DNA of 64,000 bases from Dehalococcoidia bacterium (GTDB taxonomy: Bacteria > Chloroflexota > Dehalococcoidia > UBA2979). The stretch lies in NCBI GenBank assembly GCA_965200555.1, contig OZ241365.1, positions 2,085,458 to 2,149,457 on the forward strand. The letters are read 5' to 3'. The notes below the pieces were generated by a model that worked only from the letters and a program-made list of their open reading frames with translations, made no database searches and was not told the DNA's origin. Within the stretch, counting starts at the first letter, position 1; every line of letters begins with the position of its first letter. A program made the translations under genes and the position numbers. Below, piece after piece: positions 2,182-63,428 of the stretch.

Positions 2182-2192
2182 GGGAGCGCGCG

Positions 2193-3139: not shown

Positions 3140-3149
3140 CGGGGACGGC

Positions 3150-5741: not shown

Positions 5742-5782
5742 GCCGGCGGATGCGCTGGCGCGCGGCGAAGGCGTAACATAGA

Positions 5783-6840: not shown

Positions 6841-6864
6841 CGGGGCCGGCGGAACGGAACGGCG

Positions 6865-6978: not shown

Positions 6979-7001
6979 CGGACGGAACGAGGAGGCGAAC
7001 G

Positions 7002-7385: not shown

Positions 7386-7399
7386 GGGGCGCGCGCAGC

Positions 7400-7783
7400 A
7401 TGGGAGGCCGGCGCGGCCGCCGCCGCGAACGCAAGTCGATCCCCCGCGGGCGGGTCTACATCCGCTCCACCTTCAACAACACCCTGATCACGATGACCGA
7501 CCCCAACGGCAACGTCGTGGCGTGGGGATCGGGCGGCACCGCCGGATTCCGCGGCTCGCGCAAGAGCACGCCCTACGCGGCCCAGCTGGCCGCCGAGGGC
7601 GCGGCGCAGACGGCGATCGAGAACGGGATGCGCGAGATCGAGGTTCACGTGCGCGGCCCCGGGGCCGGCCGCGAGGCCGCGATCCGCGCCCTGCAGTCGG
7701 CGGGCCTGCGCGTCTCCTCGATCCGCGACACGACGCCGATCCCCCACAACGGCTGCCGGCAGCGCCGCCGGCCGCGGACCTAG
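7400..7783 (+). CDS. rpsK: 30S ribosomal protein S11
   Basis: Track ORF of 127 aa containing [46 protein letters not shown]. Confidence 0.95.
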
Positions 7784-7793
7784 GACGGCGACG

Positions 7794-8402: not shown

Positions 8403-8465
8403 GGCGCGGACGAAGCGAGCCGGCGGCGGCGGCCTTCGCCGCCGCGACACGCAGCGAGGTGAGAT

Positions 8466-9599
8466 TTGGCGGCTGAACTGCAGACTCCGAAGCTCCGGGT
8501 GGAGCAGCAGGAGGCGGACTACGTGAAGCTGGTGATGGAGCCCCTCAACGAGGGCTTCGGCGTCACCGTGGGCAACGCGCTGCGGCGCGTGCTGCTCTCC
8601 TCGCTGCCGGGCGCGGCCATCACCTCCGTCCGCATCGACGGCGTCGACCACGAGTTCTCGACCGTCGAGCACATGCGCGAGGACGTGACCGAGCTGCTGC
8701 TCAACCTCAAGGAGGTGCGGCTGCGCGCCCACGCCGACCGCCCCGCGCGGCTGTTCCTCGAAGCCGCGGGCGAGACCGAGGTGCGCGCCGGCGACGTGCA
8801 GGCCACCGCCGACTACGAGATCGCCAACCCCGCGCTGCACCTCGCCCGCCTCGACAGCCCCGACGCCTCGCTCGTGATCGACCTCAACGTCGAGACCGGC
8901 CGCGGCTACCAGCCCGCCGCCGCCTCCGAGGGCCTGCCGATCGGCGTGATCCCGATCGACGCGCTGTTCACCCCCGTGCGCCGCGTCAACTACCGCGTCG
9001 CCAACACCCGCGTCGGCCAGGACACCAACTTCGACCGCCTCGAACTCGAGGTCTGGACCGACGGCACCATCGACGGCGAGCAGGCGATCTCGCAGGCCGC
9101 CGCGATCCTGCGCGAGCAGCTCCAGCCGCTCGGCGCCCTCGGCGGCGACGAGGGCGCGAGCGAGCGCGAGGCGGCAGCCGCGAGCGCCCCCCCCGGCCAC
9201 GACATGCTGGTCGAGGCGCTCAACCTCTCCAATCGCTCCCTGAACTCCCTCAAGCGCTCCGGTTTCGGCACCGTCGGCGCGATCCTCGAACGCTCCAGCG
9301 ACGAGCTGATGGCGATCCGCAACTTCGGCGAGAAGTCGTACGAGGAGCTGCGCGACCGCCTGCTCGAACGCGGCTTCCCCGCGCCCCGCGGCGACGCCCG
9401 CCGCTCCTCGCGCGAGCCCGCCGCTGCCGCCGTCGCCGCGGCGCCCGCCGCCGCGCCGGCGGCGGAGGCCGCGCCCGCCGGCGCGCCGCCGCCGGCGGAC
9501 GAGGGCGGCGGGCCGGAGGTCGGCGCCCTCGGCGCGGCGCTGATCGAGGCGCTGCGCGAGGCCGGCGAGGACGCGCCGGACCTCGCGGCGGACGAGTAG
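8466..9599 (+). CDS. rpoA: DNA-directed RNA polymerase subunit alpha (Ala/Pro-rich C-terminal tail)
   Basis: Track ORF of 377 aa with a TTG start. It has an N-terminal dimerisation domain and an alpha-CTD (LNLSNRSLNSLKRSGFGTVGAILERS...IRNFGEKSYEEL), followed by a low-complexity tail of about 60 aa. Confidence 0.95.
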   Translation: MAAELQTPKLRVEQQEADYVKLVMEPLNEGFGVTVGNALRRVLLSSLPGAAITSVRIDGVDHEFSTVEHMREDVTELLLNLKEVRLRAHADRPARLFLEAAGETEVRAGDVQATADYEIANPALHLARLDSPDASLVIDLNVETGRGYQPAAASEGLPIGVIPIDALFTPVRRVNYRVANTRVGQDTNFDRLELEVWTDGTIDGEQAISQAAAILREQLQPLGALGGDEGASEREAAAASAPPGHDMLVEALNLSNRSLNSLKRSGFGTVGAILERSSDELMAIRNFGEKSYEELRDRLLERGFPAPRGDARRSSREPAAAAVAAAPAAAPAAEAAPAGAPPPADEGGGPEVGALGAALIEALREAGEDAPDLAADE

Positions 9600-9638
9600 C
9601 GGCGGCGGGCGGCGGAGAACGGAGCGACGGACGAAGCC

Positions 9639-9989
9639 ATGCGCCACAAGGTCGACGGCCGCAAGTTCGACATGCCCACCGCGCAGCGGATGGCGATGCT
9701 CCGCAACCTCACCACCGACGTGCTGCGCCACGGCTCGGTGCGGACGACCGAGGCGCGCGCCAAGGAGGCGCGGCGCTTCGTCGACCGCATGGTCACGCTC
9801 GGCAAGCGCGGCACGCTGCACGCGCGGCGGCAGGCGCTCGCCTTCGTCTACGATCCCGACGTGGTGCACCGCCTCTTCGCCGAGATCGCCCCGCAGTACG
9901 CCCACCGCCCGGGCGGCTACACGCGCGTCCAGAAGCTGGGCCGCCGCCGCGGCGACGGCTCGCGCATGGCGCTGCTGGAACTGGTCTAG
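9639..9989 (+). CDS. rplQ: 50S ribosomal protein L17
   Basis: Track ORF of 116 aa starting [24 protein letters not shown]. It follows rpoA. Confidence 0.95.
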
Positions 9990-9991
9990 CC

Positions 9992-10819
9992 GTGCCGACG
10001 CCGCTGCGCCGCGTCGCCCTGCTCGTCGAGTACGACGGGACGGAGCTGTCCGGCTCGCAGTTCCAGCCGGGCCGCCGCACCGTGCAGGGCGCGCTCGAGG
10101 ACGCGCTCCGCGCCTACGACGGCGCGGCGGACGCGGCGGGGATCCGCGTCGCCCTCGCCGGGCGCACCGACGCCGGCGTCCACGCCCGCGGGCAGGTCGC
10201 CGCCGTCTCGCTCGCGCGCCGCGACGGCCTCGCCACGGTGCGCGCGGCGCTCAACCGCCGCCTGCCCGCCGACGTCGCCGTGCGCGCCGCGGCCGAGGCC
10301 CCCCCGGCGTTCGGCCCGCGCCACGACGCGCGGGCGCGGCGCTACCGCTACCGCATCGCCGACGGCCGCACGCGCTCGCCGCTGACCCGACGCGAACGCT
10401 GGCAGGTCGCGCGCCGCCTCGACGCGCGGGCGATGGCCGCCGCCGCCGCGCTGCTGCCGCGCGGACGCCGCGACTGGTCGGCGTTCGCCGGCCCGCTCGA
10501 CGGCGGACGCTCGCCGCTGCGGACGCTGCTGCGCCTCGAGGTCGCGCGCGAGGCGGACGGCGGCATCGCGATCGCGATGGAGGCGGACGCCTTCCTGCCC
10601 CACCAGGTGCGGCGCACCGCCGGCGCGCTGGAGCGCGTCGGCGCGGGCGCGCTCCCGCCGGCCGCCTTCGCCGCCCTCGCCGGGGGCGGGGCGGGGAGCG
10701 CGGGCCCGGCGGCGCCGCCGCACGGCCTGACGCTGGAGGCGGTGCGCTACGAGGCCGGCCTGCTGGCGTGGGACGGCCCCGCCGAGGCGGACGAGGCGGC
10801 GCGGGAAACGGCGGCCTGA
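9992..10819 (+). CDS. truA: tRNA pseudouridine(38-40) synthase TruA
   Basis: Track ORF of 275 aa containing LLVEYDGTELSGSQFQ and the catalytic motif GRTDAGVHARGQV. Confidence 0.9.
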   Translation: MPTPLRRVALLVEYDGTELSGSQFQPGRRTVQGALEDALRAYDGAADAAGIRVALAGRTDAGVHARGQVAAVSLARRDGLATVRAALNRRLPADVAVRAAAEAPPAFGPRHDARARRYRYRIADGRTRSPLTRRERWQVARRLDARAMAAAAALLPRGRRDWSAFAGPLDGGRSPLRTLLRLEVAREADGGIAIAMEADAFLPHQVRRTAGALERVGAGALPPAAFAALAGGGAGSAGPAAPPHGLTLEAVRYEAGLLAWDGPAEADEAARETAA

Positions 10820-10820
10820 G

Positions 10821-11651
10821 GTGACGGCGAAGACGTACCGGCTGCGCGCGTCGGCGATCGAGCGCCGCTGGCAGGTGCTCGACGCGAGCGGGCGGCCCCT
10901 CGGACGGCTCGCGAGCGAGGCGGCGCGGCTGCTGCTCGGCAAGCACAAGCCGGACTACGAGCCGCACCTCGCGATGGGCGACCACGTGATCGTGGTCAAC
11001 GCGGGCGAGGTCGCGCTGACCGGCGACAAGGCCGCGACGAAGGTCTACTACCGCCACTCCGGCTACCCCGGCAACCTGCGGAAGCGGACGTTCGCGCAGC
11101 AGATGGAGCGCGACCCGCGCAAGGTGATCGAGACGGCGGTGCGCGGGATGCTCCCGCACAACGCGCGCGGGCGCGACCTCTTCCGCCGCCTCCACGTCTA
11201 CGCCGGCCCCGGCCACCCCCACGAGGCGCAGGTCAACGCCGGCACGGGCGCGCGCGCCCGCAAGCGCGCCGCCGCCCTCGCCCGCGCCGAGGCCGCGCCG
11301 CCCATCGAGGCGATCGCGCCCCCCGAGGCCGAACCCGAGCCCGCCGAGGCCATCGAGGCCGAGGCGATGACCGAAGCGCCGGAGGCCGCCGCCGAGACGC
11401 CGATCGCCGAGCCGGAGGCCGAAGCGCCGACCGCCGAGCCGGAGGCCGAAGCGCCGCCCGCCGAGGCGTCCCCCGCGGCGGACGAGGCCGGGGCGCGGCT
11501 GGGCGGCTCGCTGATGCGCTACCGCCGCCCCGAACTCGACGCCGAGGCGGAGCGGCTCGGCATCGCGATCGAGGCGGGCTGGAAGAAGGCGGACGTGGCG
11601 CAGGCGGTCGGCGAATGGTACGAGGCGCACCCGGCGGGCGAGGAAGCGTAG
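10821..11651 (+). CDS. rplM: 50S ribosomal protein L13 with a C-terminal extension of about 130 aa
   Basis: Track ORF of 276 aa. The first ~140 aa are canonical L13 (WQVLDASGRPLGRLASEAARLLLGKHKP...GMLPHN). An Ala/Glu/Pro repeat linker and a terminal helical module follow. Confidence 0.93.
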   Translation: MTAKTYRLRASAIERRWQVLDASGRPLGRLASEAARLLLGKHKPDYEPHLAMGDHVIVVNAGEVALTGDKAATKVYYRHSGYPGNLRKRTFAQQMERDPRKVIETAVRGMLPHNARGRDLFRRLHVYAGPGHPHEAQVNAGTGARARKRAAALARAEAAPPIEAIAPPEAEPEPAEAIEAEAMTEAPEAAAETPIAEPEAEAPTAEPEAEAPPAEASPAADEAGARLGGSLMRYRRPELDAEAERLGIAIEAGWKKADVAQAVGEWYEAHPAGEEA

Positions 11652-11657
11652 GCGACG

Positions 11658-12059
11658 ATGACGACCGACGCGCAGCACTACTACTACGGGCTCGGCCGCC
11701 GCAAGTCGGCGATCGCGCGCGTGCGGCTCTACCCCGGCAACGGCGCGGTGGTCGTCAACGGGCGGCCGCTGGAGGACGTGATCTTCCGCGCCTCGCAGCG
11801 CCAGGACATGCTGCGCCCGCTGCACGCGACGGAGACGGCGGGCCGCTTCAACGTGCAGGCCCGGGTCAAGGGCGGCGGCGTCGCCGGCTGGTCCGGCGCG
11901 CTCCGCCTCGGCATCGCGCGCGCCCTCGTCGCCGCCGACGAGGGCTACCGCCGCCCCCTCCGCCAGCAGGGCCTGCTCACCCGCGACGCGCGCGTCAAGG
12001 AGCGCAAGAAGCCCGGCCTCAAGCGCGCCCGCAAGGCCCCGCAGTTCACCAAGCGCTAG
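11658..12059 (+). CDS. rpsI: 30S ribosomal protein S9
   Basis: Track ORF of 133 aa containing YYGLGRRKSAIARVRL and ending KKPGLKRARKAPQFTKR. Confidence 0.95.
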   Translation: MTTDAQHYYYGLGRRKSAIARVRLYPGNGAVVVNGRPLEDVIFRASQRQDMLRPLHATETAGRFNVQARVKGGGVAGWSGALRLGIARALVAADEGYRRPLRQQGLLTRDARVKERKKPGLKRARKAPQFTKR

Positions 12060-19129: not shown

Positions 19130-21487
19130 ATGCTGCGCGCCATGCCGCTGTCCGAGGCCGACACCCGCGCCAAGCTGATCGACCCCGCCATCCGCGCCAG
19201 CGGCTGGCCCGAGGCGCTGATCGCGCGCGAGGAGACGGCGGGCGAGGTCGCGCTCTGGGGCGAGGGCGCGCACCGCACGCGCGGGCGCATCGACTACGTG
19301 CTGCGCGCGCCCGCCGCCGCCGGCCCGCCGCTGCCCGTCGCGCTGATCGAGGCCAAGCCGGAGAGCCAGCCGCCCCTCGCCGGCCTCGAACAGGCGAAGC
19401 GGTACGGGCGGCTGCACCACGTCCCGTTCGTCTACGCCGCGAACGGCCACGCCTTCGCCGAGCACTGCCTCGACAGCGGCGAGACGCGCGGCCCGCTGCC
19501 GATGGAGGAGTTCCCCGCGCCCGAGGAGCTGCTCGCGCGCTACGAGGCGCTGCGCGGCCTCGACCTCGGCGCGCCCGATGCCGCGCCGCTGCTCGAACCG
19601 CCGGACGAGCGGGCCGACCGCTACTACCAGCGCGCCGCCGTGCGCGCGGTGCTGGAGCGCCTCGCGCGGGGCGAGCGGCGCGCGCTGCTCTCGCTCGCCA
19701 CCGGCAGCGGCAAGACGCGCATCGCCGTCCGCCTGCTGCGCGCCCTCGCCGACAGCGGCCAGCTGCGCCGCGCCCTCTTCGTCTGCGACCGCGACGAGCT
19801 GCGCTCGCAGGCGCTCACCGCCCTCCACGGGGCCTTCGGCGACGACGCGGCCGCCGCCACCGCGCGCGACCCGGCGCGCAACGCCCGCGTCGTCGTCGCC
19901 ACCTACCAGACCCTCGGCGTCGGCGAGGACGGCGAGGGCGGCGGCGACGGCTCGTACCTCGAACGCCACTACCCGCCGGACTGGTTCAGCCACGTCGTGA
20001 TCGACGAGTGCCACCGCTCGGCGTGGGGCAGGTGGAGCGCCGTGCTCACCCGCAACGCCGGGGCCGTCCACGTCGGCCTCACCGCCACCCCGCGCCGCAT
20101 CACCCCCCGCCCCGGCGCCGGCGACAGCGACGGCGACGACGCGATCACCCGCAACAACTACGAGTACTTCGGCGAACCCGCCTACGACTACGGCATCGCG
20201 CAGGGCATGGACGACGGCTACCTCGCCGCCATGCGCCTCGAACGCTCCGACGTGCTCACCGCCGGCCTGCCCGAACGCGAGCACGGCGTCGAGAGCGAGC
20301 GGCTCGAGGGCGGCGACGTCCGCGACGCGCTCACCGGCCGGCCCGCCACCGTCGCCGAGATGCGCGGGCGCTACGCCGCCGGATCGCTCGAACAGGACCT
20401 CATGATCGCCGAGCGCACCGAGGCGCTGTGCGACGACCTCTTCGCCCGCCTCGCCGCGAGCGAGGACGGCCCCGAGCAGAAGACGCTCGTCTTCTGCGCC
20501 TCCGACGACCACGCCGACCGCGTCGCCGCCGCCCTCAACAACCGCTACGCCGCGTGGGCGCGCGGGCGCGGCGCGCGGCAGCCCGCCGAGCCCTACGCCT
20601 TCAAGTGCACCGCCGCCGCCGGCAGCGACCTGCTGGCCACGCTCAAGGCCAACCAGCGCCGCGCCTTCGTCGCCTGCACCGTCGACCTGATCAGCACCGG
20701 CGTCGACGTGCCCTGCCTCCGCCATGTCGTCTTCTTCCGCTACCTCAAGTCGCCCATCGCCTTCCACCAGATGCTCGGCCGCGGCACGCGCATCCACGAG
20801 CCGACCGGCAAGCTCGCCTTCACCGTCCACGACTACACCAACGCCACCCGCCTGCTCGACGCGCCCCTCGCCCAGCGCGCCGAGGCCGGACGCGAGCCGC
20901 CCGAGGAGCCCGGCGAGAAGCGCGAGCTGCGCCGCTTCGAGGTGAGCGGCATCGCGGTGCGCGTGCTGCACGGCGGGACCGACCTCGCCGTGCAGGAGGG
21001 CGGACGCCTGCGCTTCGTCTCCCTCGCCGGGTACCGCGAGCGCCTCGCCGAGCGCCTGCTCGCCGAGGTCCCGGCGCTCGGCGGCTTCCGCGAACGCTGG
21101 ATCGACCCGCCCGCCCGCGAGGCGCTGCTCGCCGCGCTGCCCGACGAGGGCCGCAGCGCCGAGGCCTACCGCGCCGCCGCCGGCCTCGAGGAGTGCGACC
21201 TCTACGACGTGCTGGCTTCCGCCGGCTGGAACGAGACGCCGCGTCCGCGCGTCGATCGCGCCGGCCGCGTCGGCGAGGCCGACCCCGCGCCGCCCGCGAT
21301 CGAGCGCGCCCTCGCCCGCCAGTTCGCCCTCGGCGGCACCGAGGCGCTGGAGAGCGAGCGGCTGGCGCAGGTCGCCGCCGTGAGCGAGGCGGGCGGCCTC
21401 GCCGCCCTCGCCGCGGCGGGCGAGGGCGCGATGCCCGCCCTCAAGCGCCGCCTCCTCGCCACCGACGCCGAGTGGACGCCGCGATGA
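19130..21487 (+). CDS. hsdR: Type I restriction enzyme, R subunit
   Basis: Track ORF of 785 aa. The N-terminus is HsdR_N-like (SEADTRAKLIDPAIRASGW...IDYVL...ALIEAKP). Helicase motifs are SLATGSGKT, VIDECHRS and GLTATPRR. It is followed directly by hsdS and hsdM. Confidence 0.88.
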   Translation: MLRAMPLSEADTRAKLIDPAIRASGWPEALIAREETAGEVALWGEGAHRTRGRIDYVLRAPAAAGPPLPVALIEAKPESQPPLAGLEQAKRYGRLHHVPFVYAANGHAFAEHCLDSGETRGPLPMEEFPAPEELLARYEALRGLDLGAPDAAPLLEPPDERADRYYQRAAVRAVLERLARGERRALLSLATGSGKTRIAVRLLRALADSGQLRRALFVCDRDELRSQALTALHGAFGDDAAAATARDPARNARVVVATYQTLGVGEDGEGGGDGSYLERHYPPDWFSHVVIDECHRSAWGRWSAVLTRNAGAVHVGLTATPRRITPRPGAGDSDGDDAITRNNYEYFGEPAYDYGIAQGMDDGYLAAMRLERSDVLTAGLPEREHGVESERLEGGDVRDALTGRPATVAEMRGRYAAGSLEQDLMIAERTEALCDDLFARLAASEDGPEQKTLVFCASDDHADRVAAALNNRYAAWARGRGARQPAEPYAFKCTAAAGSDLLATLKANQRRAFVACTVDLISTGVDVPCLRHVVFFRYLKSPIAFHQMLGRGTRIHEPTGKLAFTVHDYTNATRLLDAPLAQRAEAGREPPEEPGEKRELRRFEVSGIAVRVLHGGTDLAVQEGGRLRFVSLAGYRERLAERLLAEVPALGGFRERWIDPPAREALLAALPDEGRSAEAYRAAAGLEECDLYDVLASAGWNETPRPRVDRAGRVGEADPAPPAIERALARQFALGGTEALESERLAQVAAVSEAGGLAALAAAGEGAMPALKRRLLATDAEWTPR

Positions 21488-22134: not shown

Positions 22135-22680
22135 GTGGATCGGCGAGCGATCACTGCCGAGCATCCCCGATACGCAGAGATGCCGTATCTCGGTCTGGAG
22201 CACATTGAATCGGGGACTGGCCGCATTCTGATCAGCGAAGATGAGGCCCGCTACTCGGAATCGATCAGCAACAACTTCCGCTTCACGAGTCGGCATGTGC
22301 TGTACGGCAAGCTAAGACCCTACCTGAACAAGGTCGCGCTGCCGGAGTTCGAAGGCCGCTGCACCACAGAGATCATTCCGCTCCTATCGATCGAAGCCGA
22401 ACGCGAGTGGGTCGCATGGTTCTTGCGCCGCGAGGAAACGGTTGAGTACGCGATGAGGGGCAGGACAGGGTCGCGAATGCCCCGCGCGGACATGTCCGAC
22501 TTGATGCGTCTCCTCATCCCGCTCCCCCCGATCGACGAGCAGCGGCGCATCGTGGCGGACCTCGAAGCGGGGATGGCGGACGCCGAGCGGGCGCGGCGGG
22601 CGGCGGAGGCGCAGCTCGCGGCGGCGGAGGCGCTGCCGTCCGCTATCCTGCGGGGCGCGTTCGCGGGGGAGGCCGCATGA
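22135..22680 (+). CDS. hsdS: Type I R-M specificity subunit, C-terminal half (TRD2 plus conserved helix)
   Basis: Track ORF of 181 aa in the same reading frame as the N-terminal half. It ends PLPPIDEQRRIVADLEAGMADAERARRAAEAQLAAAEALPSAILRGAF. The stop overlaps the hsdM ATG (ATGA). Confidence 0.8.
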   Translation: MDRRAITAEHPRYAEMPYLGLEHIESGTGRILISEDEARYSESISNNFRFTSRHVLYGKLRPYLNKVALPEFEGRCTTEIIPLLSIEAEREWVAWFLRREETVEYAMRGRTGSRMPRADMSDLMRLLIPLPPIDEQRRIVADLEAGMADAERARRAAEAQLAAAEALPSAILRGAFAGEAA

Positions 22681-24191
22681 CCGCCATCGACACGCAGTCG
22701 GCGCTCGACGCGAGGATCAAGACGGTCTGCGACGTGCTGCGGCGCTCCAACTGCGCGGGCGCGCTGCAGTACGTGCCCGAGCTGACGTGGCTGCTGTTCC
22801 TGCGCTTCCTCGACGAGCGCGAGTCGGCGGAGGCCGCGGACCGCTCCGTCCTCGGCACGGCGTTCCGCGAGTCGATCGCCGCGCCCTACCGCTGGCGCGA
22901 CTGGGCGTCGCCGGACGGCGCGAAGCGGCGCGCGCTGCAGGACGGGCCGCCGGGCGGCGTGTTCGCCTTCCTCCGCGACGACCTGCTGCCCCGCCTCCAC
23001 GCGCTCGGCGACGGGGCGGGCGCGACGGCGCGGCAGCGGCTGATCGGCCAGATCGTGTCGGGCGTCGAGCAGACGCGCGTGGACACCGAGCGCAACTTCC
23101 TCGACGTGATCGACCTCGTGGACGGCATCCGCCTCGAGGCGGTGGACGACCGCCACATGTTCGCGCTGTCGCAGGCCTACGAGGGGCTGCTGCTGTCGAT
23201 GGGTGAGAAGAACAACGACGGCGGCCAGTTCTTCACGCCCCGCGAGGTGGTGCGGGCGATGGTGCGGGTCGTCGATCCGCAGCCGGGGGAGACGGTGTTC
23301 GACCCCTGCTGCGGCACCGGCGGCTTCCTCGCGCAGGCCTACGAGTACATGCGCGAGCGGCTGGGCCGCGAGCCGTCGGCGACCGACCTCGCGAAGCTGT
23401 CCGAGGACACCTTCTACGGGCGCGAGAAGGACACCATCGTCTACCCGATCGCGCTCGCCAACCTGCTGCTGCACGGCATCGACCGCCCGCGCGTCTGGCA
23501 CGGCAACACCCTCACGCGGCGCGCGGACTACGGCGCGCTGTTCGACGGCGCGCCGAACCTCTTCGACGTGATCCTCACCAACCCGCCGTTCGGCGGAAAG
23601 GAGGGCGACGACGCCCGCACCCGCTTCGAGTACCGCACCTCCTCGACGCAGGTGCTGTTCCTGCAGGAGGCGATCGACTCGCTGACCGCGGGCGGGCGCG
23701 CCGGCTTCGTGGTGGACGAGGGCCTGCTCTTCCGCACGAGCGAGCGCGCGTTCGTCCAGACCAAGCGCAAGCTGCTGGACGAGTGCGACCTCTGGTGCGT
23801 GGTGAGCCTCGCCCCCGGCGTGTTCACCTCGGCCGGTTCGGGCGTGAAGAGCAACCTGCTGTTCTTCGAGAAGGGCCGCCCGACGGAGCGCGTCTGGTAC
23901 TACGAACTGCTGCCGCAGGGGCGCGAACGCTTCACCAAGACCGCGCCGCTGACCCTCGACCACTTCGCGGAGTTCTTCGAGCTGCTGCCGGAGCGGGCGG
24001 ACTCGGAGCGGTCGTGGAGCGTGGGGCGGGCGGAGATCGAGGAGCGCGGCTACGACCTCAAGGCGGTGAACCCGCACCGCGCCGCCGAGGCCGACGCGCG
24101 CACGCCGGAGCAGCTGCTCGCGGAGATCGAGGAGCACGGGATCGCGCTCGGCGACGCCCTCGCCGGGCTGCGGGGAGCCCTCGGCGGGTAG
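22677..24191 (+). CDS. hsdM: Type I R-M DNA methyltransferase subunit (N6-adenine)
   Basis: Track ORF of 504 aa. It has an HsdM N-domain (LTWLLFLRFLDE), the AdoMet motif VFDPCCGTGGFL and the catalytic motif ILTNPPFGGKEG. Confidence 0.9.
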   Translation: MTAIDTQSALDARIKTVCDVLRRSNCAGALQYVPELTWLLFLRFLDERESAEAADRSVLGTAFRESIAAPYRWRDWASPDGAKRRALQDGPPGGVFAFLRDDLLPRLHALGDGAGATARQRLIGQIVSGVEQTRVDTERNFLDVIDLVDGIRLEAVDDRHMFALSQAYEGLLLSMGEKNNDGGQFFTPREVVRAMVRVVDPQPGETVFDPCCGTGGFLAQAYEYMRERLGREPSATDLAKLSEDTFYGREKDTIVYPIALANLLLHGIDRPRVWHGNTLTRRADYGALFDGAPNLFDVILTNPPFGGKEGDDARTRFEYRTSSTQVLFLQEAIDSLTAGGRAGFVVDEGLLFRTSERAFVQTKRKLLDECDLWCVVSLAPGVFTSAGSGVKSNLLFFEKGRPTERVWYYELLPQGRERFTKTAPLTLDHFAEFFELLPERADSERSWSVGRAEIEERGYDLKAVNPHRAAEADARTPEQLLAEIEEHGIALGDALAGLRGALGG

Positions 24192-54213: not shown

Positions 54214-54349
54214 CGCGTCGTCCCGCTCCCCTGCCTCGAGGCCCCGCGCGCCCAGCGTAGGAGCGCGCGCCGCCCCGCGTCAAAGCGCCGCGCGGCGCCT
54301 CGCGCCGCCGCCCGCTGCCCCGCCGCGCGCGCCGTGCGACAATGCGGCC

Positions 54350-54802
54350 ATGACCTCGACCGGCGGCTACAGCGCCGCCCTCATCGACCACTTCGAGCGG
54401 CCCCGCAACGCGGGCGCGATGGCGGACGCCGACGCCGAGGCGTTCGTCACCAACCCGGTGTGCGGCGACTCGATGCGTATCTTCCTCCGCATCGACGGCG
54501 GACGCATCGCCGCCGCCTCGTTCCTCACCTCGGGCTGCCCGGCCTCGATCGGCACGTCCTCGGCGGCGACCGGGCTGATCGCCGGCCGCACCCTCGACGA
54601 GGCCGCCGCCCTCACGCGCGAGGACTACGCCGCCGCCGTCGGCGGCCTGCCGAAGTCCAAGCTGCACTGCTCCGTCCTCGCCGCCGCCGCCGTGCGCGAG
54701 GCGATCGGGACGTGGCGGCGCGGCGCGGGCGCCCCGGACGGCGGGGGGGCGGACGCCGAGGGGCGGGCGGACGGCGGGGACGGCGCGGGGGCCGCCTCGT
54801 GA
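54350..54802 (+). CDS. IscU/NifU-N-like iron-sulfur cluster scaffold protein
   Basis: ATG at 54350 in track ORF 54014..54802. Contains HFERPRNAG, NPVCGDSM, SGCPAS and KLHCSVLA (three Cys ligands). Confidence 0.8.
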   Translation: MTSTGGYSAALIDHFERPRNAGAMADADAEAFVTNPVCGDSMRIFLRIDGGRIAAASFLTSGCPASIGTSSAATGLIAGRTLDEAAALTREDYAAAVGGLPKSKLHCSVLAAAAVREAIGTWRRGAGAPDGGGADAEGRADGGDGAGAAS

Positions 54803-56661: not shown

Positions 56662-56690
56662 TTGCCGCCTGCGGGGCGCGCCGCTATCGT
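56662..56690 (+). promoter_or_regulatory. Possible promoter of the six-gene operon
   Basis: TTGCCG-17 nt-TATCGT, about 30 nt upstream of the GGAGGAG RBS of the first gene. Confidence 0.25.
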
Positions 56691-56718
56691 TCCCTGCGGG
56701 CGGGGCCGGAGGAGCATC

Positions 56719-57960
56719 GTGACCGACGGCATCGCCTACCGTTCGCCGGAGCACGCCGATCTGCCGCACGTCGCCAGGTTCTCGGGCGGCCGATCCTCGG
56801 CGGCGCTCACCTTCCTGCTCGCCGAGGCGGGGCTGCTGCGGCCCGAACGCGGCGACGTGGTCCTGTTCGCCAACACCTCGGCCGAGCATCCCGGCACCTA
56901 CGAGTTCGCCCGCGAGTGCAAGCGCCGCCTCGAGCGCGAGCACGGCCTGCCGTTCCTCTGGTACGAGTTCTGCACGGTCGAGGACGCCGCGCGCGGCGCC
57001 TACCTGCGCCGCCCCTCCTACCGGCTGGTGCGCGGCGAACCCGTCGAGGACGACCCGGACGGCTACCGCTCGCGCGGCGAGACGTTCGAAGAGATGCTCT
57101 CCTTCCAGGGGATGCTCCCCAACCCGCACTCGCGCTCCTGCACCGCCAAGCTCAAGCTCTACCCCGCCCACGACCTGCTCGCCGAGTGGCTCGGACCCGG
57201 CGAGGGCCCGCGCCCCGCCGGCCACTACGCGCCCCGCCCCTTCGTCGGCCCCGACGAGGCGCTGACGCAGCACCGCCGCTACGGCGGCGCGCAGGACGGC
57301 GAGGGCTACCGGCTGCGCGTGCGGCGCATGACCGGGGCCCCGCACGCGCGCCCGGCGCAGCGCTGGACCGACTACACCTCCGCCCCCGACGCCCGCCCGT
57401 GGCGCGGCGGACGCCCGCGGGCGGCGGAGATCTGGGGACCGGACGCCGCGGCCTTCGTGACCCTGCTGGGGCTGCGCGCCGACGAGGGCAAGCGCATCGG
57501 GCGCATCGAGTCGCGCTCGCTGCTGGCCGAGGGCAGCGGCGGGCGCGACTGCTCGATCCGCACCCAGCCGCCGGGCGAGCGCCCCTACTTCCCGCTCGCC
57601 CAGTGGGGCTTCGGCGCGGACGAGGTCGGGGCGTTCTGGGATGGCCGCGATTTCGGCCTCGACATGCCCGAGGGCGCGGGCAACTGCGTGTTCTGCTTCA
57701 TGAAGGGCACGGGCGACCTCGCGCGCATGGCGTCGAGGCCCGATCCGGCGCGCGTCGCCGGGGCGCCCTCGGACGTCGCGTGGTGGGCGGACGTCGAGGC
57801 CCGCTACCGCCGCGAGGCGCCCTCGCGCGGGGGCTGCGGCGTCTCCCGCTTCGGCTTCTTCGGCCTGTCCGGCCCCACCTTCGAGCAGGTCGCCGCCGGC
57901 GACGTCCCGCGCCGCGGCCGCTATGCTCACGGCGAGCCCTCCTGCGACTGCACGGACTGA
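56719..57960 (+). CDS. PAPS-reductase/DndC-like PP-loop (adenine nucleotide alpha-hydrolase) protein
   Basis: GTG at 56719 lies 4 nt after a perfect GGAGGAG RBS, giving 413 aa. It has the PP-loop ARFSGGRSSAAL, then VVLFANTSAEHPGTYEF. C-terminal cysteines are GNCVFCFMKG and SCDC. It lies inside track ORF 56458..57960. Confidence 0.7.
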   Translation: MTDGIAYRSPEHADLPHVARFSGGRSSAALTFLLAEAGLLRPERGDVVLFANTSAEHPGTYEFARECKRRLEREHGLPFLWYEFCTVEDAARGAYLRRPSYRLVRGEPVEDDPDGYRSRGETFEEMLSFQGMLPNPHSRSCTAKLKLYPAHDLLAEWLGPGEGPRPAGHYAPRPFVGPDEALTQHRRYGGAQDGEGYRLRVRRMTGAPHARPAQRWTDYTSAPDARPWRGGRPRAAEIWGPDAAAFVTLLGLRADEGKRIGRIESRSLLAEGSGGRDCSIRTQPPGERPYFPLAQWGFGADEVGAFWDGRDFGLDMPEGAGNCVFCFMKGTGDLARMASRPDPARVAGAPSDVAWWADVEARYRREAPSRGGCGVSRFGFFGLSGPTFEQVAAGDVPRRGRYAHGEPSCDCTD

Positions 57961-57966
57961 GGGAGC

Positions 57967-58497
57967 GTGGACGCACGGACATCGGCGTTTCTGGAGGGAA
58001 CGCGCCTGCTGGGCAGCGAGGAGCATTGCCGCCGCGCCGAGATCGCGCTCGACGGGATCGGCGCGGAGTGGGACGCGCACATGGCGACGCCGGAGCTGGG
58101 GCGCCACCTGCCCCACGCCCCGGGCCTCTACATGTTCGTGTGGCGGCCGCCGTTCCGGGCGCGCCTCGGCTCCGGCGGGACGGCGTCGTTCCGGCGCGTG
58201 CTCTACGTCGGGCGGGCGGGAGGGCCGGGCAGCGGCAACACGCTGCGGGGGCGCTACAGGGGGTACACCGCGTTGCTGGCGGACGGAGCGGCGGAGACGG
58301 ACTGGCCGAAGGCGCGCGATCGCAGGCTGGCCGCGCTCTTCCGGCTGCGCCACCTCCGGTACTGGTGCGCGCCCGTGAGCGACGAAACGGCCCTGCCGGA
58401 CATGGAGAAGCGGCTGATCGAACTGTTCGACCCGCCGGGGAACCACGAACGCCCGAAGCCGCAGCTGCAGGTGCTCCGGACCAGGCCGGCGTTCTAG
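57967..58497 (+). CDS. GIY-YIG-like nuclease domain protein
   Basis: Track ORF of 176 aa with the RBS GAGGGAG. Contains PGLYMF (GIY), a long spacer, VLYVGRA (YIG), LRGRYRGY (Arg) and MEKRLIELFDPPGN (Glu...Asn). Confidence 0.6.
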   Translation: MDARTSAFLEGTRLLGSEEHCRRAEIALDGIGAEWDAHMATPELGRHLPHAPGLYMFVWRPPFRARLGSGGTASFRRVLYVGRAGGPGSGNTLRGRYRGYTALLADGAAETDWPKARDRRLAALFRLRHLRYWCAPVSDETALPDMEKRLIELFDPPGNHERPKPQLQVLRTRPAF

Positions 58498-58511
58498 CGC
58501 AAAGGGGACCG

Positions 58512-60104
58512 ATGGCCAACGTCACCCACATTCCGGCGTTCCGCGCGCAGGTCGGCGACTGGACCTACTACATCGGCACGATGACGTACGCGGCGGTGAA
58601 GAACCAGATCAACTTCGCCTACGAGAAGCTGGGGAAGAACCGCGAGCTGGAGATGCTCCTGCAGCGCGGCATCACCAGCCGCACCGAGGTCATCTCCGAG
58701 TACCTGCAGACGAACGGCCAGCGCTTCCTCGGCGCGCTGACCGTGGGCGTCTGGGGCGGCAACCCGGACTTCCAGGAAGTGGGGATGGCCGACCGGAGCG
58801 GGCTGATGGCGGGCATCGACGACGACTGGGGGCTGCTCGTCCTCAACGGCGACGAGACCTACTTCGCCATCGACGGCCAGCACCGGCTCCAGGCCATCAA
58901 GGACGCGGTGGCGCGGAAACCCGAGCTGGGTTCGGAGAAGATCGCCGTGCTGTTCGTGCCGCACTACGACACCGCCGAGGGGCGCGAGCGCACGCGGCGT
59001 CTCTTCACGAGCATCAACCGCAAGGCGCAGCGCACCACCAAAGCCGAGAACATCGCGCTGGACGAGGACGACGGCATCGCCATCGTCACGCGCCGCCTGC
59101 TCGACGAGCACGACCTGCTGGGCCGCGACGGCGTCGTACGCATCTTCTCGCGCCCGCCCGCGGCCGACGGCCGCTTCACCCTCGCCGGCGCGGCCATCCC
59201 GAGGACCGACCCGCGCGCGTGGACGAACATGGGCACGCTCTACGAGATGTTGCGGCCCCGCGACCCCAGCACCGGCCCCGGACGGCGGCGGCCGACCGCG
59301 CTCGGCTTCGGCCTCCACCCCTCGATGTGCGCCCGCCCCGAGGACGCCCTGCGGCCGAGCGGCCCGGTGCTGGACGAGTCGTACGCCACCCTCGCGCGCC
59401 GCCTCGACGATCTGCTGGACGCCTGCGGCGGGCTGCGCGGCGCGCTCGCCGACGCCGCCGCCCACGGCACGGCCCGCGAGCTGCGCGCTCCCGAGGACGG
59501 CGAGGAGCGCGGCCACGCGCTCATGCGCCCGATCGTCCAGCGCCACCTCGCCCAGACGCTCGGCTTCCTCGTCGGCGACCAGCAGCGGCTGACCTGGGAC
59601 GAGGCGCTGGCGCGCCTGCGCGGGCTGGATTGGGAACTCGGCCAGCCGCCGTGGACAGCGGTGTTCAACGAAGGCACGAGGCGCATGATCACGGGGCGCG
59701 ACAACACCACCCTCCTGCGCCTGATGCTCGAGGCGCACCTCGCGCCCGCGAGCAAGCGCCAGATCGCCGACGCCCGCCGCGAGTACAAGGACCTGATCGG
59801 CGCGGACTACCCCGTGTCCGCCGACGCGCTCGCGGCGAGGCTGACGGAGCGGGCAATGACTGAACATAACGGGGGGGGGGGGATAGCGCCGCATGAGGGG
59901 CGGCGGCCTCCAGTTCCTCGAGACGGGACAGCCGCGAGGGTTCACCACGCTCGCGACCTCGGCGTGGGACGGCAAGCCCGAGCCGATCGTGCGCGAGCTG
60001 CTGCAGAACGCCCTCGACGCCGCTCGCGCCTCGGAACGCGGGCGCGCCGAGGTCGTGTTCACCGTCGCCTCCGCGCCGATCGCCGGCCTGCCGGGCATCG
60101 GTGA
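58512..60104 (+). CDS. DGQHR-domain (DndB-like, ParB/Srx fold) protein; 3' end ambiguous because of a G12 tract
   Basis: ATG at 58512 in track ORF 56469..60104. Contains YYIGTMTY, FAIDGQHRLQAI and LFTSINRKAQ. After the G12 tract (59871-59882) the frame becomes an Arg-rich tail overlapping the next gene. One G more or fewer would give a stop at 59883-59895. Confidence 0.7.
   Translation: MANVTHIPAFRAQVGDWTYYIGTMTYAAVKNQINFAYEKLGKNRELEMLLQRGITSRTEVISEYLQTNGQRFLGALTVGVWGGNPDFQEVGMADRSGLMAGIDDDWGLLVLNGDETYFAIDGQHRLQAIKDAVARKPELGSEKIAVLFVPHYDTAEGRERTRRLFTSINRKAQRTTKAENIALDEDDGIAIVTRRLLDEHDLLGRDGVVRIFSRPPAADGRFTLAGAAIPRTDPRAWTNMGTLYEMLRPRDPSTGPGRRRPTALGFGLHPSMCARPEDALRPSGPVLDESYATLARRLDDLLDACGGLRGALADAAAHGTARELRAPEDGEERGHALMRPIVQRHLAQTLGFLVGDQQRLTWDEALARLRGLDWELGQPPWTAVFNEGTRRMITGRDNTTLLRLMLEAHLAPASKRQIADARREYKDLIGADYPVSADALAARLTERAMTEHNGGGGIAPHEGRRPPVPRDGTAARVHHARDLGVGRQARADRARAAAERPRRRSRLGTRARRGRVHRRLRADRRPAGHR
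59871..59882 (+). repeat. G12 homopolymer at the DGQHR/GHKL gene junction
   Basis: Counted directly: aac-gggggggggggg-atagcgccgcATG. Confidence 0.95.
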
Positions 60105-61812
60105 GTACCGCAGTCACTTCGAGGCCGCCGCCGCCGAGCGCGAGCGCGGCGCCCAGGGGCGCGAGGAACGCGACGCGATCGCGCGCATCCGCGCCGTGCT
60201 CGGCGGCGGGAACGCCGCCGTGCTGTTCTGCCGCGACAACGGGCAGGGCCTCGACGGCGACCGGCTGCGGCGCGTGCTCGGCGAGGGCGACAGCGGCAAG
60301 CCGGAGGAGGGCGCCGGCAGCAAGGGACTCGGCCACCTCACCGCGTTCGCCGCCTCGGACCTGCGCTACGTGCTCTACGCCGGCCGCTCGCGCGGGCCGG
60401 ACGGCGCGCTGCGCGACGCCGCGAGCGGCCACGCGATCCTCGCCTCGCGCCGCTCCGAGGGCGGCAACGGCACGGGCGTCGGGGGCGACGGCTTCCTGCT
60501 CCGCTACGGCCAGCGCGGGCTGTTCGACGACAGCGACGCGATGTTCCCCGAGCGCGTCCCCGCGCTGCTCGCCGGCGAGCTGGAGGCGCTCGGCGGCACG
60601 GGCAGCGTCGTCGCCGTCCTCGGCTTCAACGGCTTCCGCGACGAGGCCGGCGACGACCCCGCCGAGGCGATCCGCGAGGCGGCGGCGGCGCACTTCCTCG
60701 CCGCGATCGCGCTCGGCGAGATGACGGTGCGCGTCCGCGACGCCGAGGACCGCGAGACCGCGGTCGAGCGCGGCACGCTGGCCGGGATCCTCGAACGCCA
60801 CAAGGGGCAGACCACGCGGCACGGCGGCGTGCTGCTGCCGGGGGCGCAGGCGTGGCGCGCGTGGCGCGTGTTCGGGGCGGCCTCGGCGCGGGACCTCGAC
60901 TGCGGGCTCGGCGGCGTCCGCATCCGCTTCCGTTCGCTCGACGGCGAGCCGGTGCGCGACTCGCGCGTCCAGCTCTACCGCGACGGCATGTGGATCACGA
61001 ACGACGCGCCCGGCCTCGCGCCCGGCGACTTCGGCGGCAGCCGGCCGTTCGACGCCGTGGTGATGCTGACGCGCGGCGAACTCTACGACCTCGTGCGCGA
61101 CGCCGAGGGGCCGGAGCACCGCGGCCTCGACCGCAACCGCCTCGTCGTCGGGCGGGACGCGAGCCGCTGGCTGCGGCTGCGCGGGCTGCTGCGCGCCGTC
61201 GCCGCGCGGCTGCGCGAGGAGGCGGGCGAGCGCGACGAGGCGTCGGCGTTCGTCCCGCCGGACTTCGCGATGTTCTCCGGCGAGACGATGCGCGCGGCGG
61301 AACCGGTGCGGCGCTACCGCCCGCGCCCGGCGCCGGGGCGGCCGGACGGCGGCACGACGCCGGCGCCGGACGACGAGGGAGCGCCCGGCGAGGACAAGCC
61401 GGGCGGACGCCGCGGCGGCAGGCGCGGCGTGACGCCGAGGCCGGGCCGCGGCGTGCCCGTGCGGGCGTCGGTGGCGCCCCGGCGCGGCGAGGACGGCGAG
61501 TACCGCACGCTGCGCGTCGCGTGGCGGCTGCGCGAGGGCGAGGACGCCGGGCTGGCCGGCGTGCGGCTGCGCGTGCCGTCGGGCTCCGACGAGACCTGCG
61601 AGCAGCCGCTGGCCCCCCGGTGGCTGCCGATGCGCTCCGTCGCGCGCGAGGGCCGCGTCGTCGCGCAGGCGCCCGGGGACGGCGGCGCGGCGGAGCTGGT
61701 CGTGCCCCTCGCCGCCGGCGAGCTCGAGATCGCGCTCGCCGAGCCGATCGCCGACCCCAACGCGATCGAGCTCGACGTCGTGCGCCGCCGGACGGCGGAA
61801 GGCGATGACTGA
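59893..61812 (+). CDS. GHKL-superfamily (Bergerat-fold, Hsp90/MutL/MORC-like) ATPase
   Basis: Track ORF of 639 aa with the N-box VRELLQNALDAA, G1 box CRDNGQGLDG and G2-like GAGSKGLGHL. The C-terminal region is large and unassigned. Confidence 0.7.
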   Translation: MRGGGLQFLETGQPRGFTTLATSAWDGKPEPIVRELLQNALDAARASERGRAEVVFTVASAPIAGLPGIGEYRSHFEAAAAERERGAQGREERDAIARIRAVLGGGNAAVLFCRDNGQGLDGDRLRRVLGEGDSGKPEEGAGSKGLGHLTAFAASDLRYVLYAGRSRGPDGALRDAASGHAILASRRSEGGNGTGVGGDGFLLRYGQRGLFDDSDAMFPERVPALLAGELEALGGTGSVVAVLGFNGFRDEAGDDPAEAIREAAAAHFLAAIALGEMTVRVRDAEDRETAVERGTLAGILERHKGQTTRHGGVLLPGAQAWRAWRVFGAASARDLDCGLGGVRIRFRSLDGEPVRDSRVQLYRDGMWITNDAPGLAPGDFGGSRPFDAVVMLTRGELYDLVRDAEGPEHRGLDRNRLVVGRDASRWLRLRGLLRAVAARLREEAGERDEASAFVPPDFAMFSGETMRAAEPVRRYRPRPAPGRPDGGTTPAPDDEGAPGEDKPGGRRGGRRGVTPRPGRGVPVRASVAPRRGEDGEYRTLRVAWRLREGEDAGLAGVRLRVPSGSDETCEQPLAPRWLPMRSVAREGRVVAQAPGDGGAAELVVPLAAGELEIALAEPIADPNAIELDVVRRRTAEGDD

Positions 61813-62584
61813 CGCCGCCCTGCCGGTGCTGACCGAGGACGGCTCGCGCCTCGACTGGCCGGACGCCGCCTACCGGCCGGAGGTGCGGATCGGCGGCGGC
61901 GCCGCGAGGATCGCGCACCGGCTGGAGGGCGCGCCCACGCTGGAGCGGCTGATCGCCGAGGGCGCGGCCCGCTGGGCGGTGGAGCTGCGCTGCCCGCGGA
62001 CGCTGCTGGCGCGCGTCGAGACCTCGGACGACGCAGGGCACGAGGCCGCGTGGAGCGCGGCGGAGGCGCACGGCGCGGTCTTCGTGATCCCCGGCGTGGT
62101 CGCCGTCCGCCCGCTGCGCCTCGAGGCGCCGGAGCTGGGCGCGCTCTGGCGCGGCGAGCGCCTCGACGTGCCCGCCGGCTGGTGGCTGGCGCGCGGCGTC
62201 ACGCGCCGCGACAGCACGCTGCGCGAGTCGCTGCTGTCGTTCGAGCCGGACGCCGATCTGCCGCCGGGCGCGATGGCGGTGGACCCTCGCTGGGACGAGG
62301 GCCGGCCCCGCTTCGTCGTCCGCCTCGCGCCGGACATTCGCGCCGCCGCGGAGCGCGACCGCAACCTGCAGGTGGCGGGCCTGATCGCCGTCTGCGCCCG
62401 CTTCCACCGCGAGTTCACCCCCGAGGCCGAGGAGGAGCACGCCATCGTTCGCGAGATCCGCGATCGGCTCGAAGAGGCGGGCGTGCCCGCGTGGGACGAC
62501 GAGGGCCAGTGGGACCCCGCGCGCGCGGCGACCGCGATCGAGCGGTTCGCCGCGGGGGAGCCGGACCCCGATCCCGATGCGTGA
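61805..62584 (+). CDS. Hypothetical protein (operon gene 5)
   Basis: Track ORF of 259 aa. The ATG overlaps the GHKL gene end by 8 nt. No motif was recognised. Confidence 0.6.
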   Translation: MTDAALPVLTEDGSRLDWPDAAYRPEVRIGGGAARIAHRLEGAPTLERLIAEGAARWAVELRCPRTLLARVETSDDAGHEAAWSAAEAHGAVFVIPGVVAVRPLRLEAPELGALWRGERLDVPAGWWLARGVTRRDSTLRESLLSFEPDADLPPGAMAVDPRWDEGRPRFVVRLAPDIRAAAERDRNLQVAGLIAVCARFHREFTPEAEEEHAIVREIRDRLEEAGVPAWDDEGQWDPARAATAIERFAAGEPDPDPDA

Positions 62585-63428
62585 GGCGCTGCTGGCGGGC
62601 TGCGCGCGCGCCTTCGACGGGTGGCAGCAGTCGCTCGCGGCGCGCAACAACAAGGACCTGGCGGACGAGGATCGCGCCGCCCTCGAAACGCGCCAGCGGG
62701 CGCTGCTGGCGGCGGTCGCCGACGGGCCGGAGGCGCTGGCGCGCCACCTCCGCGAGCGGCTCGGCCTCGACGCGGCCACCGCGATCGACGCGCCGCCGCT
62801 GCCGCGCGAGGCGCTGACGCCCGGCGAGTTCCGCGACCCGCCGATCGAGCTGGAGCGGGAGCTGGCCGGCGCCTGGGAGGGGCTGGTGGAGCCCGGCCGG
62901 GCGGCGCAGCCGCTGTTCTGGCTGCTGTGCCACGTCGAGTGGATCGGGCAGGGGCGCATCGACGATCTCGAAGCGGCATTGACGCTCGGCGGGCGGAGCG
63001 ACCGCACGACCGATCAGCGCACGCGCAACCTCCTGCGGCGCACGGGCGGACTGCCGCACGTCCGCTACAGCGTCACCGCGTTCTCCGACTGCCCGCTCGC
63101 CCGCGCGTGGTGGGTATGCCGCGTCGCCGCCGAGGCCGCGCGCGCCTCGGAGGGCGCGCTCGGCGCCGAGGAGGCGCACCGGGCGCTGCACGACCGCCGG
63201 CAGGTCTGGGAGACGCTGGCGATGCTCTCGGTACGCCGCGTCACGGCGATCAACCACCCGCGCGCCCGCGCGGCGCTCGTCGCCGCCATCGCCGGGCACG
63301 CGCTCGCCGAGGAGGCGGCGGTGCGGTCCGTCGCCTCGGTGCTCGCGCGCGATGCGCTCACGCGCTCGCCGCAGCACGTCCCGTGGGCGGAGCTGCGCGC
63401 GATCGCGGAGCGCGCCGCGCCCGCCTGA
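62577..63428 (+). CDS. Hypothetical protein (operon gene 6)
   Basis: Track ORF of 283 aa. The ATG overlaps the gene 5 end by 8 nt. The protein is helical and no motif was recognised. Confidence 0.6.
   Translation: MREALLAGCARAFDGWQQSLAARNNKDLADEDRAALETRQRALLAAVADGPEALARHLRERLGLDAATAIDAPPLPREALTPGEFRDPPIELERELAGAWEGLVEPGRAAQPLFWLLCHVEWIGQGRIDDLEAALTLGGRSDRTTDQRTRNLLRRTGGLPHVRYSVTAFSDCPLARAWWVCRVAAEAARASEGALGAEEAHRALHDRRQVWETLAMLSVRRVTAINHPRARAALVAAIAGHALAEEAAVRSVASVLARDALTRSPQHVPWAELRAIAERAAPA

Follow-up and report, generated by a model that had tools for sequence, protein, structure and literature searches.

Six tightly coupled genes, here called g1 to g6, lie on the + strand at positions 56719-63428 of a 64,000-nucleotide stretch of a Dehalococcoidia bacterium chromosome (the window; contig OZ241365.1, positions 2,085,458 to 2,149,457 of the forward strand). 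They very probably form a composite of two modules: a core cassette, g1-g4-g5-g6, in which an SspD/DndC-type PP-loop enzyme is encoded together with a GHKL ATPase and two proteins predicted to have new folds, and an inserted pair, g2-g3, which encodes a GIY-YIG-type nuclease-like protein and a DGQHR protein. The two modules are proposed to act together as a DNA-modification-based defence system, a reading to which a probability of roughly 0.55 is attached. An initial annotation of this DNA, made from the letters alone, had reported the six coupled same-strand genes with their ribosome-binding site and overlaps, and all of these coordinates and motifs are present in the sequence. It had also taken the six genes for one undescribed unit composed of a modification arm (PP-loop enzyme plus DndB-like protein) and a nuclease/ATPase arm, and it is this part of the description that the comparative analysis revises.

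The modular organization is seen most clearly in a survey of one genome per species, which returned 124 g4 relatives, the best 80 loci of which were analyzed. Within these 80 loci g4 is accompanied by g5 in 78, by g6 in 76 and by g1 immediately upstream in 73; the four genes g1-g4-g5-g6 are contiguous in 73, and g2 and g3 are present in none (tblastn, E ≤ 1e-5). The six-gene order that includes g2-g3 was found on three contigs (L082, L083 and L169), where g4 identity to the window is 98 %, 75-78 % and 53 %, respectively; because the gene order recurs on these contigs, the six-gene arrangement is not due to chance. The limits of the inserted pair are given by L169 (six genes) and L170 (four genes), which share their downstream genes and have nucleotide identities of 91 % (g1) and 82 % (g4 onwards): they differ by an exact 1,815-bp g2-g3 segment placed between the g1 stop codon and the g4 ATG. 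The six genes are thus not one co-conserved unit, since the pair is missing from the cassette loci, is an insertion or deletion between L169 and L170, and most often resides at the 3' end of sspABCD operons. A division into a modification arm and a nuclease arm is still upheld, with different members: conservation pairs the PP-loop enzyme with the GHKL ATPase, g5 and g6, and the GIY-YIG protein with the DGQHR protein.

An SspD-type PP-loop enzyme accompanies g4-g5-g6 in 78 of the 80 loci and is the near-universal partner of this trio. Five loci (L028, L029, L033, L064 and L065) have no g1 and instead encode a fusion of 543 amino acids (aa) between a DUF6339 protein and an SspD-like enzyme (L028:5344-6975). 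The two remaining loci are L076, which begins at a contig edge, and L081, which is a second copy in a genome where the first copy, L057, is complete. L057 and L081 both lie on OY282367.1, from one Acidimicrobiales genome, where only one of the two GHKL-g5-g6 trios has a PP-loop gene. Genes whose products sense modified DNA turn up repeatedly at the cassette or next to it: full-length SspE homologues stand beside it in 6 of the 80 loci, a ~640-aa DUF262 protein of the BrxU/HEC-05 kind is encoded on the same strand in 17, and the union of loci with an SspE-like or BrxU-like gene at or beside the cassette is 22. In L028 the PP-loop gene is followed by the SspE gene (PADLOC SspE, 6e-229) and this in turn by g4, and coordinates indicate the same order in L029. 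A tblastn search of the same loci found no SspC and one partial SspB-like match (L053). The cassette was found in 0 of 2.9 million viral contigs.

The first gene, g1 (56719-57960, + strand; 413 aa), starts with a GTG codon 4 nt downstream of a Shine-Dalgarno-like GGAGGAG (56708-56714, + strand, by direct reading), and this start is consistent with the N-termini of 30 homologues. In an alignment of 31 homologues, residues S22, G23, G24, S26 and S27 of the PP-loop FSGGRSS are invariant, CVFC and the terminal CDC fall on invariant columns, and the conserved cysteines are C141, C278, C323, C326, C409 and C411. When the profile of the 31 homologues is aligned with an SspD profile of 27 proteins, hhalign gives a probability of 98.9 % (E 2.6e-17) over 174 columns that span the PP-loop and the RxCTxKLK, RADE and CxFCF motifs; both families also carry an invariant C-terminal cysteine pair (C409/C411 in the terminal CDCTD of g1, C273/C276 in SspD). 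Among the PADLOC models g1 matches SspD at 5.1e-9 and BrxP marginally at 0.0051, and it does not match DndC. By these sequence comparisons g1 is a true SspD homologue, longer than SspD by 135 aa; the DndC-like PP-loop enzyme of the initial annotation is upheld by the SspD alignment and the invariant motifs.

The trio that follows the PP-loop enzyme in the core begins with g4 (59893-61812, + strand; 639 aa), which has the N, G1 and G2 boxes of a GHKL (Bergerat-fold) ATPase. Its motifs ELLQNALDA, DNGQG and GxxGxG are invariant among 22 homologues, the invariant residues being R34, E35, L37, Q38, N39, D42 and A43 in the N box, D115, N116, G117 and G119 in G1, and G142, G145 and G147 in G2; the middle and C-terminal regions are also conserved and include an SGSDETC motif. 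The earlier GHKL call is borne out by the invariance of all boxes, with scores that lie under the curated thresholds (HATPase_c, 14.5 vs 26.4 bits; sacsin N-terminal domain, 22.7 vs 50 bits, 1e-4). The sole solid match of g4 is to the PADLOC model PDC-M33A (9e-13, residues 32-419), and the best PDB sequence matches of its profile, both sub-threshold, are Hsp90 (E 0.087) and MORC3 (0.29). Overlaps of 8 nt link g4 to g5 and g5 to g6. Conservation declines through the core, with a mean column identity of 60 % for g1, 52 % for g4, 38 % for g5 and 35 % for g6.

For g5 (61805-62584, + strand; 259 aa) an AlphaFold model was obtained with a predicted local distance difference test score (pLDDT) of 94.7 and a predicted template modelling score (pTM) of 0.79; it shows a beta-rich N-terminal part, a helical C-terminal part and an acidic tail. 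Foldseek comparison of this model with the PDB returned only weak FN3-like matches (query-normalised TM score ≤ 0.27). Assignment of g5 as a PD-(D/E)xK nuclease was considered in view of a conserved E-x-R-C-P motif and rejected, as there was no meaningful Foldseek neighbour. The model of g6 (62577-63428, + strand; 283 aa) is all-alpha (pLDDT 95.2, pTM 0.92) and has no Foldseek neighbour in the PDB or among the BFVD viral models. The g5 and g6 family profiles likewise have no match among PDB sequences. Both proteins are confidently predicted to adopt new folds without a convincing structural neighbour.

Natural fusions of g5 with g6 exist (P0241, P0250-P0252 and P0392), which argues that the two proteins may form a complex. 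A homologue search with the concatenated g5 and g6 sequences returned 9 proteins, natural fusions among them, and a search with the fusion P0241 as query returned 451 representative proteins at E ≤ 1e-3 among 1.84 billion. In P0242-P0248 (e.g. P0246, 408 aa) the N-terminal half of g5 is in frame with g6 and the C-terminal helical half of g5 is deleted.

At the family level the trio can be placed. PADLOC PDC-M33B is matched by 42 of 54 members of the g5 family (best 6e-7; the window g5 alone, 0.064); Pfam DUF6339, the family to which PDC-M33C corresponds, is matched by 7 of 47 members of the g6 family (best 0.0023), and one of the 47 matches PDC-M33C (0.014), while the window g6 has no profile match of its own. 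Kinship of g6 with DUF6339 is retained as a weak lead. Because the g4, g5 and g6 families match PDC-M33A, PDC-M33B and DUF6339, the trio appears from sequence to be a divergent form of PDC-M33, which is one of 145 phage defence candidates obtained from guilt-by-embedding (bioRxiv 10.1101/2024.01.29.577857). The gene order is the same in both; the kinship is, however, very distant, and the SspD-type PP-loop partner is not among the three PDC-M33 models. The description of the locus as undescribed is consequently correct in part only, the g4-g5-g6 portion being distantly related to a catalogued candidate; the locus is more ordinary than an undescribed six-gene system. A second, more canonical PDC-M33A-like GHKL gene (PADLOC 9e-30) adjoins the cassette in L041 (L041:4216-6210) and also in L013, L033, L053, L064 and L065, which suggests tandem or paired PDC-M33-type systems.

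The inserted module consists of g2 (57967-58497, + strand; 176 aa) and g3 (58512-60104, + strand, ATG start; 530 aa as sequenced). In the g2 family (33 homologues) the GIY-YIG catalytic residues Y55, Y80, G82, R96 and E147 do not vary, N159 is almost invariant, and a GIY-to-YIG spacer of 25 aa (Y55 to Y80) is conserved throughout, close to the value of about 24 given in the initial annotation, whose GIY-YIG assignment is confirmed by this family alignment. Pfam PF20815 (GIY_YIG_2) is matched by 24 of the 33 (best 9e-5) and Eco29kI by 4 of the 33; two members scanned singly fall under the 22.4-bit cut-off, and the window protein has no match of its own in scans of the profile libraries. The DGQHR/DndB-like assignment of g3 is upheld: the protein carries IDGQHR, scores 79.8 bits on TIGR03187 (DGQHR; cut-off 58.85), and matches Pfam DndB at 1.4e-28 (100.4 vs 29.1 bits), over model positions 1-181 of 338 and g3 residues 7-202. 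On the DndB equivalog TIGR03233 (DNA_S_dndB) it scores 64.6 bits, far under the cut-off of 328. It belongs to a large family whose members are 45-60 % identical over their full length.

The usual setting of the pair was determined from a g3-anchored metagenome set of 80 loci, of which 48 extend 2 kb or more upstream of g3. In 42 of these 48 the gene immediately preceding g3 is a g2 homologue, and SspD is present in 40; SspD, g2 and g3 are contiguous on one strand in 34. Homologues of g4, g5 and g6 were found in none of the 80. The order in Methylobacterium sp. AMS5 (L084) is SspA, then SspB-SspC-SspD, then the g2-like and g3-like genes, and the SspB, SspC and SspD identities are confirmed by PADLOC at E-values between 0 and 1e-107. 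A GIY-YIG-like (~190 aa) and DGQHR (~430-460 aa) pair is seen directly 3' of sspD in many sspABCD operons of soil and freshwater metagenomes as well as in this Methylobacterium (L084:7401-9347; L086:2999-4869; L088-L164, e.g. L096:7216-9086), and in the Rhodococcus loci SspD and SspC are encoded close to the pair but on the other strand. Neither g2 nor g3 matches the PADLOC models of SspE, SspF, SspG and SspH, and no paper was found that names or describes a GIY-YIG/DGQHR pair as a partner of Ssp. Possibly the pair is a partner module of Ssp that has so far escaped notice.

Between the window and L083, g2 and g3 are 43 % and 53 % identical, compared to 81 % for g1 and 75-78 % for g4; because these values lie so far under those of g1 and g4, the pair appears from sequence either to have been exchanged between loci or to be evolving much faster. 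Recent foreign insertion is ruled out by the GC content at third codon positions (GC3), which at 0.94-0.96 in g2-g3 is the same as in the adjoining genes. An apparent frameshift of g2 in L082 was also ruled out; it is a scaffold gap of Ns.

The junction of g3 with g4 contains a homopolymer of 12 G (59871-59882, + strand), 10 nt ahead of the g4 ATG. As sequenced, g3 passes through this tract without a stop and reads on to 60104, overlapping g4; in this detail the sequence departs from the picture given by the initial annotation. In relatives g3 is 429-460 aa long, and the gene as called in L082, L083 and L169 terminates at the g4 start or immediately after it; in the L082 and L169 sequences the g3 stop overlaps the g4 ATG (ATGA). 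L082, the 98 % identical relative, differs from the window by 2 nt at this point (11 G, with the following A missing), which restores the g3 stop in the ATGA overlap. This difference decides the fate of g3, which either stops in the ATGA overlap or continues 72 codons into g4. It may reflect true variation in length or a fault in the assembly.

Comparison with established systems places the locus outside each of them, in agreement with the earlier statement that it matches none of the dnd, ssp, Qat, Mza or BREX type 4 gene sets; for Ssp, Dnd and BREX type 4 this follows from the fact that their defining partners were tested for and are absent. The resemblance to Ssp (SspABCD-SspE or SspABCD-SspFGH) is the closest: g1 is homologous to SspD with the same motifs and cysteine pattern, g2-g3 are habitual 3' neighbours of sspD, 6 loci have SspE itself at the cassette or next to it, and a dedicated desulfurase is dispensable in many Ssp and Dnd systems (PMC12914056). 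Unlike Ssp, the six window proteins match neither the SspB (DUF4007) nor the SspC (BrxC-like P-loop ATPase) PADLOC model; a GHKL ATPase and two novel proteins stand in place of SspB and SspC, g1 differs by two insertions and its extra length, and g2 and g3 are not SspE, F, G or H by the corresponding models. DndABCDE and BREX type 4 (BrxP/BrxC/BrxZ/BrxL) share with the locus the pairing of an ATPase with a sulfur-insertion-type enzyme of the PAPS-reductase domain in a setting of defence (PMC12914056), and Dnd shares in addition the DGQHR domain of DndB. However, they have P-loop ATPases where the locus has a GHKL ATPase; PADLOC DndD and DndE are matched by none of the six window proteins, nor is there a BrxC, PglZ (BrxZ) or BrxL among them, the one BREX match being the marginal one of g1 to BrxP. 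The literature search found no paper on an SspD-type enzyme with a GHKL ATPase, on GHKL with PAPS reductase, or on PDC-M33, DUF6339 or Poriferisodalis, and the present system is not covered in a reappraisal of Dnd (PMC10853773). It would work most like Ssp, with a trio nearest to the candidate PDC-M33.

The proposed mechanism builds on these likenesses. In the established phosphorothioation systems a PAPS-reductase-domain enzyme is always paired with an NTPase, and IscS or SufS is often borrowed (PMC12914056). By analogy, g1 would activate a DNA backbone phosphate with ATP and insert sulfur supplied by a housekeeping cysteine desulfurase, as do DndC, SspD and BrxP, and g4, g5 and g6 would replace the P-loop ATPase and nickase (DndD/DndE, SspB/SspC or BrxC) in finding, clamping or presenting the DNA target. 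The DUF6339-SspD fusion suggests that g6-like proteins may dock the PP-loop enzyme, a suggestion that rests on the weak link between g6 and DUF6339. The pair g2-g3 would constitute a two-protein analogue of SspE, in which the ParB-like g3 reads the modification state and the GIY-YIG protein g2 cuts or nicks invading DNA. SspE is a phosphorothioate-sensing ParB-like NTPase joined to a nickase (PMC9646914), and the slot that g2-g3 fill in the window is held by SspE in L028 (and, by coordinates, in L029). The pair would repeat, divided over two genes, the logic of SspE, GmrSD and BrxU, where a ParB-like DUF262 NTPase is fused to an HNH-type nuclease; the domains differ (DGQHR rather than DUF262, GIY-YIG rather than HNH/DUF1524), as does the number of polypeptides (two rather than one).

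Several observations weigh against this mechanism. The chemistry is inferred from homology alone, and PP-loop enzymes of other defence systems use non-DNA substrates. The score of g1 on Pfam PF01507 (PAPS_reduct) is below the gathering value (17 vs 22.5 bits, residues 18-71 only), its family profile has no match among PDB sequences, and it carries two large insertions relative to SspD. No nuclease, nickase (SspB/DUF4007), DNA-binding domain or cysteine desulfurase is recognisable in the core, genes for an SspA-like cysteine desulfurase are present in only 2 of the 80 cassette loci, and about three quarters of these loci have no obvious effector gene nearby. The link of g6 to DUF6339 is weak (an hhalign probability of 11 % when the g6 profile is aligned to a single DUF6339 sequence; best Pfam E 0.0023). 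In the window g3 lacks a normal stop, so that the g2-g3 pair is perhaps not in its native state. Finally, DndB proper is a transcriptional regulator (PMC4507180), and g3 could be regulatory as well.

Three other explanations were considered. The translational coupling of the six genes in the window and the same six-gene order in L082, L083 and L169 are what would be expected of a single integrated restriction-modification-like system with all genes obligatory, in which the PP-loop enzyme and the DndB-like protein modify and the GIY-YIG protein and the GHKL ATPase are the effectors. This is nevertheless highly improbable, given that g2 and g3 are lacking from every one of the 80 loci that hold the other four genes, that the pair is a clean indel between syntenic relatives and occurs elsewhere with sspBCD and never with g4-g6 (80 g3-anchored loci), and that its identity between the window and L083 (43 % and 53 %) is far below that of g1 (81 %) and g4 (78 %). 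The core could instead be a defence or conflict system without DNA modification. Its PP-loop enzyme, like the QueC-like ones of Qat and of type IV cyclic-oligonucleotide-based antiphage signalling systems (CBASS), would have a protein, nucleotide or RNA as its substrate for adenylation or thiolation, and the GHKL protein would be a sensor or chaperone. Such a core would be consistent with the absence of a nuclease, methylase, nickase or DNA-binding domain among its recognised domains, with the many cassette loci (the majority) that have no adjacent effector, and with the chaperone-like character of the closest g4 profile matches (sacsin N-terminal domain, Hsp90); but the specific relative of g1, by motif and cysteine set, is SspD and not QueC or TilS, and the genes met repeatedly at the cassette or next to it (SspE, BrxU-like, Ssp-type GIY-YIG/DGQHR) are all connected with modified DNA. 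It is therefore regarded as doubtful.

An explanation that concerns just the inserted pair denies it an effector role: g2-g3 would either adjust the level of modification, as a DndB-type regulator pair, or be a selfish GIY-YIG homing cassette directed at the 3' ends of sspD-like genes. Free-standing GIY-YIG genes are often mobile, and g2-g3 habitually land directly 3' of an SspD-type gene; yet the full catalytic set of g2 is kept over deep divergence, and the pair shares the orientation of its neighbours, is coupled with them and has a fully ameliorated GC3. For the regulatory variant, g3 matches Pfam DndB and DndB represses the dnd genes (PMC4507180), but the Pfam match is N-terminal only and the equivalog score (64.6 vs 328) is far too low for DndB proper. 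Overall, a non-effector role of the pair is judged unlikely, and a modifying core with a sensing and cutting partner is preferred.

The window has ~75 % GC and is chromosomal, its opening stretch (76-12059) being a ribosomal-protein/SecY/RpoA operon. Open reading frames resembling HsdR (19130-21487) and HsdM (22677-24191), called from their N-terminal sequence only, are present as the initial annotation had noted when it pointed to a type I restriction-modification locus as defence context; they lie ~33 kb from the operon and, at this distance, argue only weakly for a defence island. A gene for an IscU/NifU-like Fe-S scaffold (54340-54720, + strand; called from sequence only) is located ~2 kb upstream of g1, and it is probably an unrelated housekeeping gene because it is not conserved beside the cassette in other loci.

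The hosts of the 80 cassettes belong to Gemmatimonadota/Longimicrobiales, Chloroflexota (Dehalococcoidia, Tepidiformaceae), Acidimicrobiia, Thermoanaerobaculia, Bryobacterales, Opitutales, Rhodobacteraceae and Gammaproteobacteria. The Acidimicrobiia include Ca. Poriferisodalis, Ca. Spongiisociaceae and Ca. Hopanoidivorans cymbastelae; several taxon names refer to sponges, and the labels of many of the metagenome-assembled genomes (MAGs) resemble what we take to be labels of sponge-microbiome projects. Judged from names and labels, the hosts are apparently for the most part sponge-symbiont MAGs of several phyla, and this distribution suggests habitat-wide horizontal transfer of the cassette. 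It comports with the finding that defence genes, including phosphorothioation genes, are enriched in sponge metagenomes (PMC5099237).

Taken to its furthest extent, the proposed mechanism would give g1-g4-g5-g6 the rank of a fifth DNA backbone-modification system with a mechanism of its own, whose product would be phosphorothioate or some related sulfur mark. Target selection, for which Dnd, Ssp, Tdp and BREX type 4 have P-loop ATPases, would fall to a GHKL ATPase and two new-fold proteins, and the cassette would have spread horizontally among sponge symbionts of several phyla. The GIY-YIG and DGQHR proteins would be a widespread unnamed restriction partner and would explain part of the ~84 % of sspBCD loci reported to be without SspE or SspFGH (PMC8092258); this extended form is put forward tentatively, as a possibility that falls short of an even chance. 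If the core does make phosphorothioate, SspD-type enzymes would be targetable by a GHKL clamp instead of a P-loop ATPase, and the definition used in mining for phosphorothioation systems would need to be wider, since searches for a PAPS-reductase domain with a P-loop NTPase (PMC12914056) would miss the cassette. The GIY-YIG/DGQHR pair is a candidate restriction partner for the sspBCD loci, the majority, that seem to be without one, and the predicted models of g5 and g6 supply two confidently predicted new folds. The apparent restriction of the cassette to sponge symbionts of several phyla offers an ecological clue, pointing to defence genes that are shared horizontally throughout a habitat, here a filter-feeding host rich in phages.

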